A stretch of 64,000 nt of DNA from Escherichia coli (GTDB taxonomy: Bacteria > Pseudomonadota > Gammaproteobacteria > Enterobacterales > Enterobacteriaceae): the NCBI RefSeq assembly GCF_036507355.1, contig NZ_AP027877.1, one strand, 5' to 3'. The notes under the pieces are model-generated. The model saw only the letters and a program-made list of their open reading frames with translations, did no database searches and was not told the DNA's origin. The first letter of the stretch is position 1. Every line of letters begins with the position of its first letter. Shown here one piece after another: positions 3,850 through 35,981 of this stretch. The position numbers were made by a program, and so were the translations under genes.

Positions 3850-5559
3850 TTATTGCACTGGCTCCGTCGATGTAACTTCACCGCTGGAAACGATGCCAGC
3901 ATTCATGGTTTGAGTCACTTGCTGCTTTGCGGCGTTCACGGCATGCAATTGCCCGCTAACCGTAGGTTTCAACGGGACATTGGCCTGAATATCGCCACTG
4001 GCGGTAAGCTGAATATTGCCGTCGCCAGTCAACGGTAATTCAGGCCATCCCCACTGTTGCAAAATATTCACCGGCACACCGCGTCCATTCAGGCTGATAT
4101 GGGTCTGACGTTGTGGCGTTTGTGAAACACTGGCGGTGGCTTCCAGAATGCCTTTTTCAGTAAATGCACTCAGTTCGCTGATATTCACCGTGCTGCTGTT
4201 GGCGGTTAGCGCCAGCGATGGACGGCGGACATCAACACGATTAAACGTCGCGGCGGCGGCATTCAGATTCGCCGAGCCACTCCAGACGCCCCATTTATGA
4301 TCGGTAACCAGCGTCAGGTTGGCACCGTAACCATCGAGCGCGGTGAGCTGCCACGGGAAGTCAGGGTCGATATCAATGATCAGATTGCGGCTGGCGCTAA
4401 ATCTCTTCAGTTGCAGGCTGTTTAACCAACCGGGTGTCGTTTCCATCCACAACTGTTGCCAGTTTTTCGGCAAGGTATATTCCAGCCCGGCAATTGCCGC
4501 ATCATCAAGGATCAACGTTTTCCCGTCACGCAGCCAGTTCCCTGACGTTCTGACCATACCCCCTTCCCAGCGGCTGGTGAACTGGCGCAGCGCTACGCCC
4601 TGCGGGGAAAATTCCGCGTTTATAATCGGGTCAAATAAATGCAGCGAACCATAAATGAACTCGCTGGCGTTCATCGACAGTTTGCCTTCTTGTGTCTGCC
4701 AGTCATCTTTACTGAAGGTCATGTTGCGCAAGCTGAGATCGAGGTCGGTCACCGCCCAGTCCGGACCTTGCAGACGAGCATCGATCACTTCCAGGCGACC
4801 AATCTGCAACGACGGGACAGAGCGTAATGGCGCAAAGAAGTCGGTTAGCGATTTTTCGCTTTGTAGACGGATATCCGCCATGCGCAGATTTTCCACTTGC
4901 CAGCTGCCGTCGGCGTTACGCTGCGCGTTTCCGGTTAATGTCCCGCGCGCGATGTCGGCACCCAGGTTAGTCAGCGTAACGCGATCGTTATCAATACTGC
5001 CTTCAATCAGTACATTGGTGGCAGGAATATCATTGAGCGAAAGCGATCCGGCACTAAACTGAATCTGCGCCTTCGTACCCAGCACTTTACCGGCTTCTGG
5101 TGACCACGGAACCACGCCGCCATTTACCCGCTGCGCGCTCAGTTTCCATTCGCTATTCGGGCTATTAAACGCCATATCACGCAGTTGCAGACGATCGGCT
5201 TTGAACGGTAGCGGCGCGGTCTGGTCGGTGAGATTCAGCGTTCCGTTTTCCAGCAGGATGGTATCGACATGGCGTGGTTCGGTCAGTTGCCGACTGCTTA
5301 GCGCAATGTCGACACTTTTTGCCACCAGGGTCGCGGGCTGGCCATCACGGCCAAACGTGACGTTCTCCAGCACGATATGAGATGGCGCGGAAAAACGGTG
5401 ATCCATCGCCCCGAAGGCCAGATGATAGTCGCTATTCTCGGAAACCCATGCGCTGATATGTTCTGCTCCCCAGCGGGTTTGCAGAAGAAAATAGAGGCCA
5501 GCGATCACCACTAACAGAGCGATGAGAATGTAGAGAAGCAGCTTCCCAATAAATTTCAT
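3850..5559 (-). CDS. yicH: AsmA-family outer membrane assembly protein
   Basis: ORF with ATG at 5559 (MKFIGKLLLYILIALLVV... N-terminal TM anchor); length ~569 aa. Confidence 0.85.
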   Translation of the reverse strand: MKFIGKLLLYILIALLVVIAGLYFLLQTRWGAEHISAWVSENSDYHLAFGAMDHRFSAPSHIVLENVTFGRDGQPATLVAKSVDIALSSRQLTEPRHVDTILLENGTLNLTDQTAPLPFKADRLQLRDMAFNSPNSEWKLSAQRVNGGVVPWSPEAGKVLGTKAQIQFSAGSLSLNDIPATNVLIEGSIDNDRVTLTNLGADIARGTLTGNAQRNADGSWQVENLRMADIRLQSEKSLTDFFAPLRSVPSLQIGRLEVIDARLQGPDWAVTDLDLSLRNMTFSKDDWQTQEGKLSMNASEFIYGSLHLFDPIINAEFSPQGVALRQFTSRWEGGMVRTSGNWLRDGKTLILDDAAIAGLEYTLPKNWQQLWMETTPGWLNSLQLKRFSASRNLIIDIDPDFPWQLTALDGYGANLTLVTDHKWGVWSGSANLNAAAATFNRVDVRRPSLALTANSSTVNISELSAFTEKGILEATASVSQTPQRQTHISLNGRGVPVNILQQWGWPELPLTGDGNIQLTASGDIQANVPLKPTVSGQLHAVNAAKQQVTQTMNAGIVSSGEVTSTEPVQ

Positions 5560-8730: not shown

Positions 8731-10812
8731 TTACGCATTCGAGTAACGTTCCGTCTCCGGCATCCAGCGTTCTATCAGGGCTTTTGCCTGTTGTGGGTAA
8801 CGTTCGTGAATATGGCGTGCCAGGCGCTGAACTTCCGGGATCATCGCCTGATCGCGCAGTAAATCCGCCACTTTAAATTCAGCATTACCCGTCTGACGAG
8901 TGCCTAACAATTCGCCAGGGCCGCGAATCTCCAGATCTTTTTGTGCAATCACAAACCCGTCGTTGCTGTCGCGCAGCACTTGCAGGCGAATTTGCGCCGT
9001 TTTAGAAAGCGGCGTTTTATAGAGCAGCACGCAGTGAGAAGCCACCGCGCCACGACCTACACGCCCACGTAGCTGGTGCAACTGCGCCAGACCCAGACGC
9101 TCCGGGTTTTCGATAATCATCAGACTGGCGTTAGGCACATCAACGCCGACTTCAATAACGGTTGTGGCAACCAGCAGGTGTAGCTCACCTTGTTTAAACG
9201 ACGCCATCACCGCCTGTTTCTCGGCAGGTTTCATCCGCCCGTGTACCAGGCCAACATTCAACTCTGGTAGCGCCAGTTTCAACTCTTCCCAGATAGCTTC
9301 CGCCGCCTGCGCTTCCAGTAACTCTGACTCTTCAATCAACGTACAAACCCAGTACGCCTGACGACCTTCAGTCATGCAGGCGTGGCGCACGCGGTCAATG
9401 ATGTCGGTACGGCGAGTATCAGGAATAGCGACCGTAGTCACTGGCGTGCGGCCTGGCGGCAGTTCATCAATGACCGAGGTGTCGAGATCAGCATACGCAG
9501 TCATCGCCAGCGTGCGGGGGATCGGCGTGGCGGTCATGATCAACTGATGCGGATGGAAGCCTTGCTGCTGGCCTTTCTCCCACAATGCCAGACGCTGATG
9601 CACGCCAAAGCGATGCTGTTCGTCGATAATCACCAGCGCCAGGCCGTTAAACTGCACCTGTTCCTGGAAGATGGCGTGTGTTCCGACAATCATCTGCACC
9701 TGACCGCTGGCGATGGCTTCCTGCTGAGACAGTCGCGCTTTACCTTTCTGCTTACCGGCGAGCCAGCCCACTTCGATACCGAGCGGTGCAAACCAGTTGC
9801 GGAAGTTATTAGCGTGCTGTTCGGCGAGTAATTCGGTTGGTGCCATCAATGCCACCTGTTTGCCGTGGGCAATCGCACGCAGCGCGGCGAGGGCAGCGAC
9901 CAGCGTTTTACCGGAACCTACATCGCCCTGTACCAGGCGCATCATCGGCACATTCAGCGCCATATCGCGCTCGATCTCCGCCACCACGCGAGCCTGAGCG
10001 CCCGTTGGCTTGAACGGTAAGGCGGCAAGAAGTTTATTTTTCAGCGTGTCATTGGCGCTCAGCGGCTGGGCATGGAAACGTTGCGCTCCGGCGCGTAAGG
10101 CTAACATGCTGAGGTTATGCGCCAGCAGTTCTTCCAGAATCAGACGACGTTGCGCCGGATGCTGCCCGGTTTCCAGATCGCTAAGTTGCAGCGTCGGCGG
10201 CGGGCGGTGCAAAGTGCGCAACGCTTCCGGTAGCGTCATCATTCCTTGTGACAGTTCCGGCGGCAGGAGTTCTTCAATGGCGCAGGTGTCGAGCAGATCC
10301 AGCGCCTGGTCGGTTAATTTACGCAGCGTGGCCTGCTTTACGCCTTCGGTTGTTGGATAAACCGGCGTGAGCGTTTCCTGCAACTCTGGCGTACTGAGAT
10401 CGCCCTGCACGCGGTATTCCGGGTGGATCATCTCCGCACCATATTTACCGCGCTTTGCTTCTCCATAGGCCAGCACGCGGCGGCCCGTCGCCAGGCTATT
10501 TTTCATTGCCGCGTTGAAGTTGAAAAAGCGCATGGTGAGAATGCCGGAACCGTCGCTGATCTGGCAGGTCATCATCCGCCGACCGCCGAAGGAGATATTG
10601 CAGTTCAGCACTTCGCCTTCCACCGTGGCATAAACGCCCGGTAGTAGTTCTCCGATGGGGTAGAGATGGGTGCGATCTTCGTAGCGCAGGGGAAGGTGTA
10701 AGAGTAGATCCTGCACAGTCTGCAGGTTGATTTTCGCCAGCTTGTTACTAAGCGCTGCGCCAACGCCCGTTAGGGAACTGAGCGGGACAGCATCTAACAG
10801 GCGACCTTTCAT
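8731..10812 (-). CDS. recG: ATP-dependent DNA helicase RecG
   Basis: ATG at 10812 (MKGRLLDAVPLSSL...); Walker A GDVGSGKT, DEQH box, helicase motifs visible. Confidence 0.95.
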   Translation of the reverse strand: MKGRLLDAVPLSSLTGVGAALSNKLAKINLQTVQDLLLHLPLRYEDRTHLYPIGELLPGVYATVEGEVLNCNISFGGRRMMTCQISDGSGILTMRFFNFNAAMKNSLATGRRVLAYGEAKRGKYGAEMIHPEYRVQGDLSTPELQETLTPVYPTTEGVKQATLRKLTDQALDLLDTCAIEELLPPELSQGMMTLPEALRTLHRPPPTLQLSDLETGQHPAQRRLILEELLAHNLSMLALRAGAQRFHAQPLSANDTLKNKLLAALPFKPTGAQARVVAEIERDMALNVPMMRLVQGDVGSGKTLVAALAALRAIAHGKQVALMAPTELLAEQHANNFRNWFAPLGIEVGWLAGKQKGKARLSQQEAIASGQVQMIVGTHAIFQEQVQFNGLALVIIDEQHRFGVHQRLALWEKGQQQGFHPHQLIMTATPIPRTLAMTAYADLDTSVIDELPPGRTPVTTVAIPDTRRTDIIDRVRHACMTEGRQAYWVCTLIEESELLEAQAAEAIWEELKLALPELNVGLVHGRMKPAEKQAVMASFKQGELHLLVATTVIEVGVDVPNASLMIIENPERLGLAQLHQLRGRVGRGAVASHCVLLYKTPLSKTAQIRLQVLRDSNDGFVIAQKDLEIRGPGELLGTRQTGNAEFKVADLLRDQAMIPEVQRLARHIHERYPQQAKALIERWMPETERYSNA

Positions 10813-10817
10813 GGCAC

Positions 10818-11507
10818 TTACCCTGCAGCCTGCATGGTAGCCCACCAGTCGGCATCAGCTTCGATCTCGCCTTGCTGATTGACGTGGGGATAAGGCAGGC
10901 CTTTGCGTTTTGCGACTTTCGCCAGCACCGGATAGCCGCCTTCAAACAACAGGCGTTGTTGCTCTGCTTCCGGCAACATGCTGTTTTCACGCAGGTACAT
11001 GCCTGCATTTTGCCGCTGACGCTGGGCTTCGTAAAGAATGAGGGCTGAGGCAACGGAAACATTCAGCGACTGCACCATGCCGATCATCGGAATGATGATG
11101 TCCTGATCCGCCAGGGCCAACGCTTCCTCAGTGATGCCCGTTTTCTCCTGACCCATCAAAATGCAGGTCGGGCGAGTGTAATCAATTTCGCGAAAATCGA
11201 CAGCGTTATCAGAAAGATGGGTTGCCAGAATTTGCATGCCCTGGCCTTTCAGATGGGTGACGGCATCGCCAATGGTGCGGTGCGTTTTCACCTGCACCCA
11301 ACTGTTGCTACCCGCCGCCGCAGAGGCCATGGTACGCATGCGGCTACCAGGCCAGACGGCGTGAACTTCATGTACGCCAACGGCATCTGCGGTACGAATA
11401 ATCGCAGAAACGTTATGAGGTTTGTGGACCTGCTCCATGCAGACGGTCAGATCAGGCTGCCGCCTGGCGAGCATTTCGCAGATGCGTGCATAACGTGTTG
11501 GGTTCAT
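10818..11507 (-). CDS. trmH: tRNA (Gm18) 2'-O-methyltransferase
   Basis: 229-aa SpoU-family ORF immediately upstream of recG in spoT operon. Confidence 0.9.
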   Translation of the reverse strand: MNPTRYARICEMLARRQPDLTVCMEQVHKPHNVSAIIRTADAVGVHEVHAVWPGSRMRTMASAAAGSNSWVQVKTHRTIGDAVTHLKGQGMQILATHLSDNAVDFREIDYTRPTCILMGQEKTGITEEALALADQDIIIPMIGMVQSLNVSVASALILYEAQRQRQNAGMYLRENSMLPEAEQQRLLFEGGYPVLAKVAKRKGLPYPHVNQQGEIEADADWWATMQAAG

Positions 11508-23398: not shown

Positions 23399-23860
23399 TT
23401 ACTCAGTATGATCAGCGGCATCCTTTGGGGTGCCGTTTTGCTTTATCCGGTCATTAATTTCCTCCAGCAAGTCTTCAGCCTTAACCAATTCTCTGATTGC
23501 CTTTGCTGTCCGCGCTGCCTCTGCTTCAGCTTTGTCGGCTGATTTTTTGGCTAACTGTTCGCGCCTTTCGGCTCTGGCTTGAGCATCCAACTCCCAATCG
23601 CATGAAAGGTGGCGGCCATCTAGATACCTGCTTACGATAACGCCTCTTTCATCCGTATCCTCATGAATGAACCACCAGCCATGCTTCTCGTTCATTAATT
23701 GCTGCAATGGTGAGCGATAGTGTTTACCTGCTATTTGAAGTAATTCGTCTTCACAAACAGGGCCATCAACCAGCGCGCGCCAGATTCGATATGCCTTTGT
23801 GCCTGGCTTAGGGATAGTGTGCAACGGCGCAGTAATCAGGATTTTCTCCCAGTTCTTCAT
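23399..23860 (-). CDS. hypothetical protein (153 aa) between alpA and primase
   Basis: ORF MKNWEKILITAPLHTIPKPGTKAYRIWRALVDG...; ATG overlaps alpA stop (ATGA); charged coiled-coil-like C-terminus. Confidence 0.55.
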   Translation of the reverse strand: MKNWEKILITAPLHTIPKPGTKAYRIWRALVDGPVCEDELLQIAGKHYRSPLQQLMNEKHGWWFIHEDTDERGVIVSRYLDGRHLSCDWELDAQARAERREQLAKKSADKAEAEAARTAKAIRELVKAEDLLEEINDRIKQNGTPKDAADHTE

Positions 23861-24030
23861 TTTTTGGCCTCCAGCCATGAGTTGATTTCTGTTGAAGACC
23901 ATGCTGTAACGCGTTCAGAAAGTTTTATGGGTTTTGGTATCTTCCCGGTTCTTGCCCAGCGCCAAAGAGAAGAAACGCTAATTCCCAGTTGGTTAGCCAG
24001 GTCTTTAGGGCGTAAATATTGCGTTTTCAT
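23857..24030 (-). CDS. alpA: AlpA-family transcriptional regulator
   Basis: 57-aa ORF MKTQYLRPKDLANQLGISVSSLWRWARTGKIPKPIKL... (HTH, AlpA/Xis-like); GAGG SD. Confidence 0.75.
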   Translation of the reverse strand: MKTQYLRPKDLANQLGISVSSLWRWARTGKIPKPIKLSERVTAWSSTEINSWLEAKK

Positions 24031-24112
24031 TTGGTATACCTCGCTCAACGCACTGCCACTCAGTGCTACGACAGCAAAGATAAAGGCATCCAGTGGCAGA
24101 TATAATGCGCAG

Positions 24113-24150
24113 CAAAGTAGGTCTTCACTTTCAAAGTAGGTCTTCACTTT
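24113..24150. promoter_or_regulatory. tandem 19-bp direct repeat upstream of alpA (candidate operator)
   Basis: caaagtaggtcttcacttt repeated twice back-to-back, directly seen; overlaps stop of upstream 283-aa gene. Confidence 0.5.
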
Positions 24151-24995
24151 TGTGAGAATGTTTCAGGGAACCATTCTTGTAGTTGCTGCCTAAGTTTTTG
24201 GCATCTAGAATCATCTTTAATATTGATATCTATACCTTCCTTTGCGGCATACCTTTTTATCGCTTCAATTGTTGCGTCCAGAGTGATGGAGCCGCGTACC
24301 CCCTTACATTCTTCAATCTCATGCTTCAGAACGTATTCAGCTACCTTGCGGCGATTGGCGTGTATCTGAGCGTATCGGATAGTTCGCCCGTCGGTATTGT
24401 CACCAATCGTTTTTAGTGCCTGTTTTGCCTGTGCCGCTTCATAAACTCGCTCAATGTCTTCGGCAGACAGGAACGTTTCATTCATAGAAATAACAAGCGA
24501 GTTATCACCAGTAAAAGTGATGTCCAAACTCCCAACCCCATCAGGACGTTCGTCTATAGCCTCCAGATAATTATTAATGGTGTCCTTGTTTAACCTTATC
24601 GGCTCATTTGGCCTTATAGGAAAAGATGACGGTATGGCCCAGTAACCAGAAGCAATGCCAGTACACCAGAAACAATCTTCCTCAGTGGAAATATGGAAAT
24701 CGGTGCTGACTTTTGAAAGCTCAAGCCCTAACGGGTGAGGTCGATTTTTCGTGGCGCATCCCATATATAGCGCCTCGGCAATTTCTTTCGCATTGTTTTG
24801 GATTAACTCCCGGGAAAGAAAGCCTCCAAATGAACAAGGCTCGCCATTGAGGAGAGCATACAGATGGATCCGGCGCTCTTGATGGTAAGCAACCAACGTA
24901 GTAGGACTTACACCCAACAGCTCGCTTGCCTCAGCTATAGATACTGGCCCATCAGGTCTAACCCTTTTCTTTTTTTCCCAGATTGAAGCGCGCAT
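24144..24995 (-). CDS. hypothetical HTH-domain protein (283 aa)
   Basis: N-terminal helix-turn-helix-like segment SIAEASELLGVSPTTLVAYHQ; remainder unrecognised; sits between int and alpA. Confidence 0.55.
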   Translation of the reverse strand: MRASIWEKKKRVRPDGPVSIAEASELLGVSPTTLVAYHQERRIHLYALLNGEPCSFGGFLSRELIQNNAKEIAEALYMGCATKNRPHPLGLELSKVSTDFHISTEEDCFWCTGIASGYWAIPSSFPIRPNEPIRLNKDTINNYLEAIDERPDGVGSLDITFTGDNSLVISMNETFLSAEDIERVYEAAQAKQALKTIGDNTDGRTIRYAQIHANRRKVAEYVLKHEIEECKGVRGSITLDATIEAIKRYAAKEGIDINIKDDSRCQKLRQQLQEWFPETFSQK

Positions 24996-25049
24996 TTTTC
25001 ACCCTGCCTGTCTTTTATTTGTTCGATTGATGTTCGGGCCAGAAATTTT

Positions 25050-25158
25050 TGTCCCGTCCTGTCCCGTCTTTTGTCCCGGTTTTGTCCCATAACCATTCTT
25101 GTAACCAGCTGTATTTATTGAGTCTTTACAAAACGGGACAAACGGGACAGATGGGACA
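25050..25158. repeat. second iteron cluster (4x TGTCCC, ~45-bp spacer, 3x GGGACA); crr-like site or operator
   Basis: Hexamers at 25050, 25060, 25072, 25083, 25135, 25144, 25153; same hexamer and architecture as 20556..20665, ~4.5 kb away. Confidence 0.55.
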
Positions 25159-25181
25159 AGCAAAAAAACAATATTGAAAAT

Positions 25182-26441
25182 CTATCTGGCTTGCCTCAGT
25201 GGTGTAACGTTGTACTCTTCGCCCCGTTCAAGCGCTTCCATCAGGTTGCCCAGCATGGCCAGCGCTTCCCGCCGTTCGTTTAAATATTGGTGACGGTTGT
25301 AGATGCCTTCGACGCCTTTAATGCGGTGATTAAGGCAACGTTCGGCAACGATAGGATCAACGCCCAGCGCTCCTAAGTGGGTTCGGGCGGTGCGCCTAAG
25401 GTCGTGAATAGTGAAGTTAGGTACGCCCGGCATTGCCTGCTTAACCTTCGCCAGCGCAACGGGCAGGGTGCTTTCCTGAATGTGGGGGATCATGCGGTGC
25501 TGTTGTTTTCGCGCAGGTAGTACCCATTTGCTGTTACAGGAAAGAAGGCGCAATTCTTCAAGCCATTCGATAGCCTGCTTTGGCAGCGGAATATCAATCC
25601 CGTCGCCCGTCTTTGTACGCTCGCCCGGCAAGTACCAAATGCCATTGGCTAAATCGAACTCGCTCCAGCGTGCGGCGCATAGCTCCATCTTTCTCACGCA
25701 AGTGACCAGCAGCAGCTTTATCGTCAATTCGTTCTCGCGGCTAAAGCCTTTCGCCATTCGCATGGCTTCAAAGAGTTGAACCAGTTCCGGCCTGGTTAAC
25801 CATCGTTCTCGAGATGTTTCCTTACCGCCCGCGTCACTTATATCAAAGGCGGCTGCGGGGTTAACCTCAATCATTCCCAGCTTGATCGCATGGTCAAAGA
25901 TGCGGCGTACCCATCGCAGGACGTCATTAGCAACGGATGGCGCACCACGTTTTAAGATGGCCTGAAGCAAGGCATCAATATCTCGGGGTTTGACGTCCTT
26001 AACCTTTTTCTGACCTATGCGAGGATTAATGTCTTTCGCCAGACGACGGCGGAGGATGTCGGGGTGTTTCCATGTACCCAGTACTTTCTTCTTAAAATAG
26101 TCTTCAGCTACTTCGGACACTGTTTTGTCATGCTGGTCGGCTTCCAACTGGGCTTTTAATGCGGCTTTTCGCTCCTGCTTCTCACCGGCAACGTCATACC
26201 CCAGGGAAACACGAGCAGCCAGCTCTCGGGTGATCTCCCGGGCTTTAGCCAGTGAGATAACGCCATACGCGCCAATTGTCATAACACGAGGCTTGCCAGC
26301 GAAGCGGTAGCGGAAACGCCATGATGGGGACGTGTCAGTAGTGCGATAGCGCAAATATAAACCGTTACCGTCCGATTTACCCTCGAACCTTGTTCCGGCC
26401 TTTATCCAGGCCTTGATCTGAATGTCTGTTAGCTTGCCCAT
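25182..26441 (-). CDS. int: tyrosine site-specific integrase (P4-type)
   Basis: 419-aa ORF; N-terminal arm-binding-like domain (GLYLRYR), C-terminal catalytic residues (HDLRRTARTHL ... GIYNRHQY); adjacent to attR. Confidence 0.85.
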   Translation of the reverse strand: MGKLTDIQIKAWIKAGTRFEGKSDGNGLYLRYRTTDTSPSWRFRYRFAGKPRVMTIGAYGVISLAKAREITRELAARVSLGYDVAGEKQERKAALKAQLEADQHDKTVSEVAEDYFKKKVLGTWKHPDILRRRLAKDINPRIGQKKVKDVKPRDIDALLQAILKRGAPSVANDVLRWVRRIFDHAIKLGMIEVNPAAAFDISDAGGKETSRERWLTRPELVQLFEAMRMAKGFSRENELTIKLLLVTCVRKMELCAARWSEFDLANGIWYLPGERTKTGDGIDIPLPKQAIEWLEELRLLSCNSKWVLPARKQQHRMIPHIQESTLPVALAKVKQAMPGVPNFTIHDLRRTARTHLGALGVDPIVAERCLNHRIKGVEGIYNRHQYLNERREALAMLGNLMEALERGEEYNVTPLRQAR

Positions 26442-26579: not shown

Positions 26580-26617
26580 TGTAGGTGGTGTGATTCTGTA
26601 TGATATGGGGTGATACG

Positions 26618-27481
26618 CTACTCAATATTCTGAATCTGCTCGCGCATCTGCTCAATCAACACTTTCAGCTCGATGGCGGAGTTTGTCACTTCGGCGTTGA
26701 TAGATTTCGACGCAAGAGTGTTCGACTCGCGGTTGAACTCCTGCATCATAAAGTCCAGACGACGACCAACGGCTTCTTTTTTCTTCAGAATGTTGTAGGT
26801 CTCTTTGACATGCGCTTCGAGGCGGTCCAGTTCTTCGGCAACGTCAATTCGTTGTGCCAGCAGAACCAACTCCTGCTCCAGACGGTTGTTTTCCAACTGC
26901 ACCTGAGCATCTTCCAGCTTCGCGACCAAGCGTTCACGCTGCCATTGCAGGATTTCCGGCATATGGGAGCGGACTTTGACCACTTCGGCGGTGACGCCTT
27001 CCAGACGCTGCTCAATCAACGCTTTCAGCGCCTGACCTTCGGTTTCGCGAGCGATGATAAAGTCATCCAGGGTGCCATCCAACGCTGCGAGAATTTCAGC
27101 GGCAATCGCGTCGAGATCTTGCTCCTGGGCCGCCATCACGCCCGGCCAGCGTAGAATATCAACCGGGTTGATTTCCCCTTCGTCACTCTGCATTTTTACC
27201 CAGTTCGCGGCAGTTACCAGCTGTTTAGCCAGTTTTTCGTTGAGGATCAGCTCACCTTGCGCGCTAACATCTGGCTCATAGCGCAGAGTACATTCCACTT
27301 TACCGCGCGTCAGGCGAGAACGAATACGCTCACGAACGACAGGTTCAAGGCTACGGAACTGCTCCGGCAGACGAAAGTAAGTTTCCAGATAACGCTGGTT
27401 TACCGAGCGCATTTCCCAGGTTGCGCTCCCCCATTCACCCTTGATTTCACGCCGGGCGTAGGCGGTCATACTGCGGATCAT
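26618..27481 (-). CDS. yicC: YicC-family stress-induced protein
   Basis: 287-aa ORF MIRSMTAYARREIKGEWGSATWEMRSVNQRYLE... ending ...EQIQNIE. Confidence 0.9.
   Translation of the reverse strand: MIRSMTAYARREIKGEWGSATWEMRSVNQRYLETYFRLPEQFRSLEPVVRERIRSRLTRGKVECTLRYEPDVSAQGELILNEKLAKQLVTAANWVKMQSDEGEINPVDILRWPGVMAAQEQDLDAIAAEILAALDGTLDDFIIARETEGQALKALIEQRLEGVTAEVVKVRSHMPEILQWQRERLVAKLEDAQVQLENNRLEQELVLLAQRIDVAEELDRLEAHVKETYNILKKKEAVGRRLDFMMQEFNRESNTLASKSINAEVTNSAIELKVLIEQMREQIQNIE
26622..26638. other. attR core (tcaatAttctgaatctg) within the last codons of yicC
   Basis: 17-bp direct repeat of 18487..18503 with one mismatch. Confidence 0.7.
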
Positions 27482-35618: not shown

Positions 35619-35948
35619 AGTAAATAGCTGACTTATGGATGTGCTGGGGATTCTATGTATTTAGCTGTGGCTTTACCATTACTTTTCCCGTTTTTGACTT
35701 AAATAGCAATTTACCCGCCAATTCTTGCTGAACATCTATACTTTTTTTGTATTTTTATGCGATTCATTGATTTCTGCTGTACGTGCAGGAAGGAATCGCA
35801 GAGCAACAGTGAAAGAATATGGTTGCTAATGATTATATTTGATTGATTTCTTTATTGAAAATCAACAATGTGCTTAAAAATCATTCGGGTCGGATTGCCG
35901 CGAAAGAAGTGATACACTAGCGCGTCAATATCAGTGCGGTATCAGTAT

Positions 35949-35981
35949 TCAGGTAGCTGTTGAGCCTGGGGCGGTAGCGTG
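35949..35981 (+). promoter_or_regulatory. JUMPstart element with ops (GGCGGTAGCGTG), RfaH-dependent antitermination site
   Basis: ops 12-mer directly seen at 35970..35981 in the waaQ leader. Confidence 0.8.

Follow-up and report, generated by a model that had tools for sequence, protein, structure and literature searches.

A predicted DNA-binding protein in the integrase-alpA slot of a small Escherichia coli phage satellite, and its possible role in control of alpA

In the PICMI satellites of Vibrio, the gene that follows the integrase gene int is called iolg, or icg where the two genes do not overlap, and comprises 13 families whose functions are undescribed (PMC10803314). In the one case tested, excision, packaging and transduction all depended on iolg (Barcia-Cruz et al. 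2024, PMC10803314). Both int and iolg are apparently constitutive, and alpA lies within the phage-induced early regulon (PMC10803314). That the int-alpA slot holds a gene, and that this gene is important, has already been published for PICMIs (PMC10803314). In Gram-negative PICIs, AlpA expression is sufficient for excision and replication; induction depends on a helper phage and is driven by an activator, with no repressor reported (PMC6092414). In SaPIs, the variable part of Stl that does not bind DNA acts as the receptor for a helper-phage protein (PMC6092414). Fillol-Salom et al. 2018 described the inducer of alpA as under study and a global repressor as 'unclear' (PMC6092414), and the way in which the helper activates the early regulon is a question raised by Barcia-Cruz et al. 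2024 (PMC10803314).

Here we analysed a 64-kb stretch of E. coli DNA (the window) that contains an island of 8.1 kb, integrated at the 3' end of yicC. A first-pass annotation of the window had pointed to a 283-aa gene between integrase and alpA; this open reading frame was confirmed, and we refer to its product as X. The features of the island are as follows.

18463-18503, plus strand: left att-like repeat, a direct repeat that marks the island end
20550-20665, minus strand: origin-like iteron cluster downstream of the replicase, with GGGACA/TGTCCC sets and an AT-rich 45-nt spacer between them
20759-23388, minus strand: replication module, with a toprim primase (22462-23388) and a DUF927 helicase-type replicase (20759-22480)
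23399-23902, minus strand: 167-aa protein, no family
23857-24030, minus strand: alpA, 57 aa per RefSeq (Pfam Phage_AlpA, E 4e-10)
24031-24112, minus strand: alpA leader, with mutually exclusive inverted repeats and a GAGG Shine-Dalgarno sequence before the ATG at 24030
24113-24150, minus strand: perfect tandem repeat of 2 x 19 nt, AAAGTGAAGACCTACTTTG, the proposed operator of X
24144-24995, minus strand: X, the 283-aa slot protein, ATG start
24996-25181, minus strand: region upstream of the slot gene, with three TGTCCC, a 45-nt spacer and four GGGACA (25048-25165), and the ribosome-binding site (RBS)
25182-26441, minus strand: P4-type tyrosine integrase (Arm-DNA-bind_3, Phage_int_M, Phage_integrase)
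26598-26638, plus strand: right att-like repeat, overlapping the 3' end of yicC

The two att-like copies form an imperfect 41-nt direct repeat that sets the limits of the island. Its flanks are those of E. coli, with yicC, rph, pyrE, slmA and dut on one side and dinD, yicG and ligB on the other, and in about 5,300 complete E. coli genomes the site is uninterrupted, the two flanks meeting within approximately 165 bp. All island genes, X and alpA included, lie on the minus strand in the order int, X, alpA, the 167-aa gene, toprim, DUF927, the iteron cluster, a variable gene and three small conserved genes. The 167-aa gene represents a second swappable slot, in which Enterobacter islands have genes of 107-114 aa. 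The small open reading frames at the left end received no Pfam or PHROG assignment, and no recognisable capsid, terS, rpp or ppi gene was found in the 8.1 kb. Both iteron clusters that had been noted earlier are real, each consisting of inverted GGGACA/TGTCCC sets around a spacer of about 45 nt.

The island resembles the Gram-negative PICIs EcCICFT073 and EcCIMP1 in its co-oriented int, alpA and pri-rep genes and its site-specific insertion, and it resembles E. coli PICI origins in having two iteron sets that flank an AT-rich spacer after rep (criteria of PMC6092414). EcCIMP1 also has a locus (002) between int (001) and alpA (003). Unlike Gram-negative PICIs, which span about 10-15 kb and carry packaging genes, this island is 8.1 kb long and lacks them. 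On gene orientation, origin and att sequences, it would thus be classed with the Gram-negative PICIs, while being minimalist like a PICMI. By position in the slot, the closest described analogue of X appears to be PICMI iolg/icg. In both cases a co-oriented gene follows int and precedes alpA, within the order int, slot gene, alpA, small gene and primase, and in both the slot is filled by many unrelated or hyperdivergent families; the comparison of X with iolg/icg made here is one of position. There are also differences: PICMIs lie next to fis and have DUF3987/DUF5906 primases, whereas the X island lies at yicC and has toprim and DUF927; iolg overlaps int by 1-13 nt, whereas X is separated from it by a 186-nt gap; and published descriptions of iolg/icg include no HTH, operator or mechanism, in contrast to the predicted winged helix-turn-helix (wHTH) and candidate operator of X.

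A conceptual likeness extends to Stl/Rpr of SaPIs and Gram-positive PICIs, which are int-adjacent HTH proteins, as X is predicted to be, with a remainder that is highly variable from island to island. However, X has no sequence or structural relation to Stl/Rpr, and Stl is divergent from the operon it controls, whereas X is co-directional with alpA. The same genomic neighbourhood is shared by the int-alpA RNA motif (Rfam RF02996), which in six related islands lies behind int, in the same orientation, and ends about 20 nt before the slot gene starts. RF02996 is absent from this window, where the inverted GGGACA arrays take that position.

Database searches with X (Pfam, PHROG, NCBIfam, PADLOC and PDB sequences, the last queried with X alone and with a profile) returned only sub-threshold HTH matches. 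These included Pfam MerR (21.0 bits against a gathering cut-off of 28.2; E 3e-4) and HTH_17 (19.0 bits against a cut-off of 27; E 1.7e-3), both over residues 19-43, and, as the sole match in PADLOC-DB, the HTH of mad1 (E 0.011, residues 17-41), with no assignment to a defence protein. No match to a terminase small subunit was found in Pfam, PHROG or NCBIfam. A word-indexed search of 5.8 billion proteins recovered four close clusters, comprising E. coli and Enterobacter proteins at 82-96% identity and an E. coli variant at 55%. When 1.84 billion representatives were searched exhaustively with a profile, the only credible addition was a more distant relative, a 380-aa protein of Brenneria (P0006); a match to a TPR protein in the same search was spurious. 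P0006 aligns with X over residues 154-279 (hhalign E 1e-6), and is collinear at the N terminus too. Its gene lies in the gap between those for an integrase and an AlpA-like protein, in a toprim-DUF927 island that occupies another site in the chromosome. Almost no further relatives came from searches that started from P0006 or from an 18-sequence profile; in all, five close clusters and the one Brenneria relative were counted among billions of proteins.

An alignment of 18 sequences shows a common architecture at 11-21% identity, with an N-terminal motif (xxAAxxLGCxxxDLLxxAxxGxIxL), a G-[LFY]-W motif in the middle, an 'nDLxItxxEve'-type motif further on, and a C-terminal helical domain that opens with a basic segment. 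None of the 18 members belongs to a Pfam family, and 4 of the 18 have weak MerR matches. X thus belongs to a previously unnamed, hyperdivergent family of predicted DNA-binding proteins, by sequence comparison a member of no curated family. The gene is intact when compared with a homologue at saturated synonymous divergence (dN 0.34), and among close variants the last ~80 codons change fastest (omega ~0.76). The following parts of X can be distinguished.

Residues ~17-60: N-terminal MerR/Xis-type winged HTH
Residues 62-77: helix
Residues ~105-135: beta-rich middle with the conserved motif CFWCxGxASGYW
Residues 168-186: motif ISMNETFLSAEDIERVYE
Residues ~201-280: C-terminal helical domain

The AlphaFold model became usable with the 18-sequence alignment, a run with five sequences (pLDDT 46) being unusable. 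At the N terminus it has a helix, a turn, a second helix and then a beta-hairpin wing, that is, a MerR/Xis/AlpA-type winged helix, and the N terminus is accordingly predicted to work like an excisionase/MerR-type DNA binder. The middle region is poorly modelled (pLDDT 40-70), no structural relative was found for the rest of the protein beyond the N terminus, and a Foldseek comparison of the 18-sequence-based model with viral structures gave no match. In contrast to AlpA/Xis/TorI and MerR types, the 283-aa X carries about 220 residues beyond this domain for which no relative was found, and a separate, canonical alpA adjoins it. In the model the helix behind the wing is only 16 residues long, and neither the long dimerisation coiled coil of the MerR family proper nor a recognisable effector domain is seen.

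Sister islands at yicC are present in about 30 E. coli genomes, and the gene in their slot encodes either X or one of two proteins unrelated to it, of 201 and 203 aa; in the latter two cases no HTH and no tandem repeat was detectable. Because sister islands carry unrelated slot genes, the role of X must be either dispensable or filled very differently. In an alignment of the E. coli islands, the stretch that separates the int stop codon from the slot ATG, including the GGGACA arrays and the RBS AGGGTGAAAAATG, is conserved whatever gene comes next, and the exchange boundary is the slot-gene start codon. The block that is non-homologous to islands with the 201-aa gene (23890-24989) covers X, the spacer between X and alpA, and almost the whole of alpA, which are therefore exchanged as one module; AlpA of X-type islands has 67-68% identity to AlpA of the other islands. 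The GGGACA clusters, by comparison, are identical beside unrelated slot genes, which speaks against the link between X and the iterons implied by the first-pass annotation, and X was rejected as an iteron-binding protein. The iterons are not specific to X, since the int-adjacent GGGACA cluster also persists at a locus (L005) that has a replicase of another type and lacks the second cluster.

An integrase-anchored scan of one genome per species yielded 43 loci in Enterobacterales, Aeromonas, Neisseriaceae and Methylococcales. Where int and alpA were both found, the gap between them was 730-1220 bp and nearly always contained one co-oriented open reading frame of ~200-350 aa, and the int-slot-alpA layout of X was present in at least 25 related loci. 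A local jackhmmer search from X against the 4,789 open reading frames of the surveyed loci retrieved only frames located in the slot (P0006 and those of L016, L037, L057, L045, L018, L015, L053, L023, L019 and L027). All relatives reached by iterative searching from X are slot genes, and they come from no fewer than 11 further genera or species; genera with the superfamily in this slot include Escherichia, Enterobacter, Brenneria, Tatumella, Pantoea, Rosenbergiella, Erwinia and Aeromonas, among others. Other loci have other slot families, such as a 216-235-aa family that overlaps int by 4 nt (L035, L039). No relationship was detected between X and the 201-aa, 203-aa or 216-235-aa slot proteins. 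G+C content is lower in slot genes than in int and alpA (0.454 versus 0.531 in the window, and 0.37 versus 0.57-0.67 in Brenneria). As a counterpoint to regulation, the AT-richness of X and its rarity (5 of 5,426 complete E. coli genomes) are typical of accessory genes.

The end of the X gene coincides with the tandem repeat, each 19-nt unit of which has the dyad AAAGT-N8-ACTTT. The repeat starts 4 nt ahead of the X stop codon, covering the last two codons and the stop, and ends 83 nt upstream of the alpA ATG. It is unique in the window even when three mismatches are allowed (none expected), and is absent from islands with other slot genes. At locus L008, whose X is 55% identical, the same position has GGAAAGAAGAGCTAGTTT and GGAAAGAAGAGCTAATTT, the two copies having diverged together. 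In strain ET490 the last 60 residues of X are strongly diverged, and residues 203-222 and the repeats are unchanged. Downstream, in the alpA leader, CTGCCACT (24092-24099) can pair with AGTGGCAG (24053-24060), and a GCACTG/CAGTGC hairpin lies at 24050-24066; the fold of the leader is not significant in the window (z -0.5) and is strong in related loci, as judged from single-sequence folds. Scans between X and alpA found no terminator and no consensus sigma-70 promoter. With lax thresholds, a weak TTGAAA-21 nt-CATTAT match appeared, with the second repeat inside its spacer and the dyad off-centre, and long-spacer analogues occur in some relatives; although consistent with promoter remodelling of the MerR type, this match does not count as evidence of it.

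Similar arrangements recur across the superfamily, in which the first 80 nt downstream of the slot gene contain paired dyads or direct repeats spaced 18-27 bp. A direct repeat (period 17-27) or palindrome at or below 2.5% of background was found in 11 of 17 islands, where about one would be expected; background came from 3,000 random 80-nt windows of the same loci, with either of the two measures counted. Not all islands are independent of one another, and the motifs fall into about seven distinct types. The remaining 6 of 17 islands lacked a significant post-stop motif. Two copies of GGAATATTCC follow the slot genes of L019, L023 and L032, and among 57 loci this motif is confined to these three, always directly behind the slot gene. 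Other motifs are GAGTTATtcATAACTC and GAGTTttccATAACTC at L045 and AAAACTTTcAAAGTTTT at L015. At L016 and L037, whose slot proteins are 53% identical, the dyads are ATAGTA-N4-TACTAT and ACAGTA-N4-TACTGT, respectively, a symmetric change in both arms. Repeats of this kind were rejected as terminators or RNA hairpins, as the dyads are AT-rich, some have spacers of only 0-2 nt, there is no T tract and the terminator scan was empty.

Comparison across islands indicates that, at the level of sequence, the post-stop motif tracks the slot protein and not AlpA. The AlpA proteins of L015, L019 and L037 are 87-89% identical and have the same recognition helix, whereas their motifs differ and their slot proteins are 24-30% identical. 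The repeats were rejected as AlpA sites because near-identical AlpAs accompany different motifs. The three slot proteins that go with GGAATATTCC share a K-T-I-N segment that opens the C-terminal domain. Those of L019 and L032 are similar in their C-terminal 100 residues (41% over 64 aa) but not at the N terminus, and L015 and L019 share the N terminus (63%) but not the motif. In this small sample, the comparison suggests that the segment around residues 200-225 contributes to specificity.

We tentatively propose that X binds the repeats and controls alpA, a reading that we regard as possible rather than probable and in which the operator is assigned by co-variation across about seven independent motif types. 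X, with its predicted winged helix, fast-evolving middle and C-terminal helical domain, would be a regulator that recognises specific DNA sequences in a small phage satellite of the PICI/PICMI type, a dimer of dimers probably occupying the two 19-bp dyad repeats. From there it would gate transcription or translation into alpA, the gene of the master activator, expression of which starts excision and replication. It may act as a roadblock or repressor that is freed by a phage product, or as a phage-dependent activator, and X, its candidate operator and alpA are inherited and exchanged together. Whereas the gene, its predicted N-terminal fold, the conservation of the slot, the repeats and their co-variation with the slot protein are direct results of the comparison, we infer DNA binding by X, its target, the sign of regulation and the connection to a helper phage. 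The phenotype of the iolg deletion in PICMIs points to a slot protein that acts positively or as part of an excision complex. A counterpoint comes from the same experiment, in that abolished excision after deletion of PICMI115 iolg is a poor fit to a simple repressor.

That the family has diverged to such an extreme suggests that its variants are each adapted to a partner of their own, which is most plausibly a product of the helper phage. A broader version of the proposal, which we consider doubtful, is that slot proteins are the helper-phage sensors of Gram-negative PICI/PICMI-type satellites, acting on private candidate operators before alpA; the hypervariable middle or C-terminal part would meet a specific phage product and alpA would then be switched on or released. 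If so, the slot protein would decide which phages induce which satellite.

An alternative that we consider unlikely is that X is an excision cofactor, a directionality or architectural protein that joins Int and AlpA in an excisive complex, as proposed for IOLG. The predicted N-terminal fold equals that of Xis/AlpA-type excisionases and the position directly after int is as expected. Deletion of iolg in PICMI115 abolished helper-induced excision, packaging and transduction, and a three-protein excision complex was proposed (PMC10803314). However, that deletion was complemented only by int and iolg together (PMC10803314), and an effect through induction of alpA is therefore still possible. The repeats linked to X, moreover, lie about 2.5 kb from the island ends and not in an att arm, and in all family members they are immediately upstream of alpA. 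Participation in excision is compatible with gating of alpA, and the two are not mutually exclusive. Far less probable is a function in packaging specificity, with X as a small-terminase-like protein and the repeats at the gene end as the pac site of the satellite. In pac phages, pac lies in or beside terS, and the layout of a site within its own gene, together with the wHTH, would fit. Yet X matches no terminase family, lies in the early/integration zone upstream of alpA rather than in a late operon, and gave only insignificant tblastn matches to terminase large-subunit genes (E 0.5); the equivalent PICMI gene is also needed as early as excision (PMC10803314).

The first-pass annotation had left open whether the protein was a regulator or sensor controlling the island or additional cargo. 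Our analysis favours the regulator, given that the same superfamily fills the slot in many genera and a co-varying motif precedes alpA. Accessory hotspot cargo, such as an anti-phage, superinfection-exclusion or helper-interference protein expressed from the conserved promoter, is quite improbable, although the cargo-like traits are real: three unrelated genes alternate in the E. coli yicC-island slot, they are exchanged exactly at the start codon below an identical promoter/RBS region, slot-gene G+C is low, X is rare and its C-terminal 80 residues evolve fast (omega about 0.76), and satellites are known to carry defence hotspots (PMC9122126, PMC8628076). There was no PADLOC, Pfam or PHROG defence match, however, and random cargo is hard to reconcile with one superfamily kept in the same slot across many genera, with a predicted DNA-binding fold and a private, co-varying candidate operator beside alpA, or with the exchange of X together with alpA.

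What these results add to the published work on PICMIs is a hyperdivergent superfamily that spans many Enterobacterales genera and has a predicted winged-helix N terminus, co-varying operator-like repeats before alpA, and the modular exchange of X, operator and alpA. The X family is a concrete candidate for how helper phages switch on alpA, which would not be surprising in principle; if true, it would explain satellite-helper specificity and give the iolg/icg class a function. Confirmation would also define a protein family that is now without a Pfam model. Satellite annotation would improve as well, since at present the gene carries either the label 'hypothetical' or that of 'MerR family regulator'.

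Relatives of the DUF927 replicase also occur in satellite-sized 'phage' records, namely vB_Pae_U10, satellite phiAH14b and S. aureus PT1028. No kinship was detected between X and the 247-aa slot protein of the Pseudomonas satellite vB_Pae_U10. The latter is 10.2 kb long and encodes, in turn, int, this 247-aa protein annotated as 'excisionase and transcriptional regulator', an AlpA-like gene, toprim, DUF927 and a GpN capsid.

Six related islands carry a match to the Rfam 'int-alpA RNA' (RF02996, 38-63 bits) between int and the slot gene, that is, the gene positioned between int and alpA. In these islands, the slot gene belongs to the superfamily of X, the 283-aa slot protein of the window (24144-24995, minus strand).

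Matches to int-alpA RNA (RF02996) in six related islands
L015: 10269-10333, same strand as slot gene
L019: 10269-10334, same strand as slot gene
L021: 10302-10368, same strand as slot gene
L027: 8173-8238, same strand as slot gene
L037: 10276-10341, same strand as slot gene
L045: 10268-10335, same strand as slot gene

Because the motif shares the strand of the slot gene and its 3' end falls ~20 nt ahead of the slot-gene start, it looks like a leader of that gene. RF02996 has no match anywhere in the window, where inverted GGGACA arrays are found at the equivalent position.

The GGGACA iterons of the window form two clusters 4.5 kb apart, a spacing reminiscent of the ori/crr layout of P4.

GGGACA iteron clusters
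Window 25048-25165: int-proximal cluster
Window 20550-20665: second cluster
L005 (related island) 5378-5471: int-proximal cluster

In the L005 island, the int-proximal cluster is retained despite a replicase of a different primase type and the absence of the second cluster. The int-proximal cluster may therefore act in transcription of the slot/alpA operon, or serve as a site for a conserved non-replicase protein.

In related islands, the alpA leader forms a strong hairpin (z -4 to -5) in which the Shine-Dalgarno sequence, and in some cases the start codon as well, is buried.

Hairpins in the alpA leader of related islands
L015: 11396-11445
L016: 11385-11440
L021: 11332-11386
L037: 11388-11440
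L032: 15885-15937

The stem shows compensatory changes between islands (CCCCUAAC/GUUAGGGG, UUCCCGUAAC/GUUACGGGAA and CUGCGAUUAC/GUAAUCGCAU) which, together with the burial of the Shine-Dalgarno sequence, suggest that alpA is under translational control. The fold of the window alpA leader (24031-24105) is not significant (z -0.5), although this leader contains two mutually exclusive inverted repeats.

In every host examined, slot genes have a G+C content far below that of the flanking int and alpA (for example, 0.37 versus 0.57-0.67).

Examples of AT-rich slot genes
L006 (related island): 10001-11143
L019: 10355-11200
Window: 24144-24995, minus strand, encoding X

A low-G+C pool from which slot genes are often exchanged could account for this AT-richness, as could selection for silencing. 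The best-conserved motif in the middle region of X, CFWCTG/IASGYW, is encoded by an imperfect 20-nt tandem repeat within the coding sequence (24639-24676). In L008, an island with an X 55% identical, the post-stop tandem repeat (10846-10885) has an 18-nt period, so that its second copy duplicates the last codons and stop in frame (…GKKS* FGKKS*); the post-stop repeat of the window has a 19-nt period, and its second copy is out of frame.

Variable region and left-end genes of the window island
19640-20500: second variable region, directly after the origin
20042-20497: 151-aa ORF, G+C 0.39, hydrophobic N terminus
18648-19638: three small ORFs (134, 62 and 97 aa) at the left end

At the position of the 151-aa ORF, sister islands encode a TM2-domain protein with a partner, a DUF5681 protein or nothing, and the variable region resembles a cargo hotspot. 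The left-end genes, for which no family assignment was obtained, are kept in all yicC islands, including one with a different replication module, and are candidates for helper-exploitation functions.

Pseudomonas phage vB_Pae_U10 (L058; PP003922.1; 10,183 bp), deposited as a phage, has the layout of a satellite and is probably a packaged one. It encodes int, a 247-aa slot protein (an 'excisionase and transcriptional regulator'), an AlpA-like gene, toprim and DUF927, together with a capsid gene of the GpN type. This slot protein has no detectable relatedness to X.

Between slmA and pyrE, another E. coli assembly that carries a P0004-type island, a sister E. coli island, has a reverse-transcriptase gene (L007: 4708-5667; RVT_1, 319 aa) that is absent from this position in the window and may be a retron-like insertion. 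In the window, a JUMPstart (ops) element (Rfam RF01707, 55 bits; 35943-35981) precedes the LPS core (waa/rfa) operon, and a low-G+C stretch at 39-44 kb is part of the same waa/rfa region; both are ordinary for E. coli.
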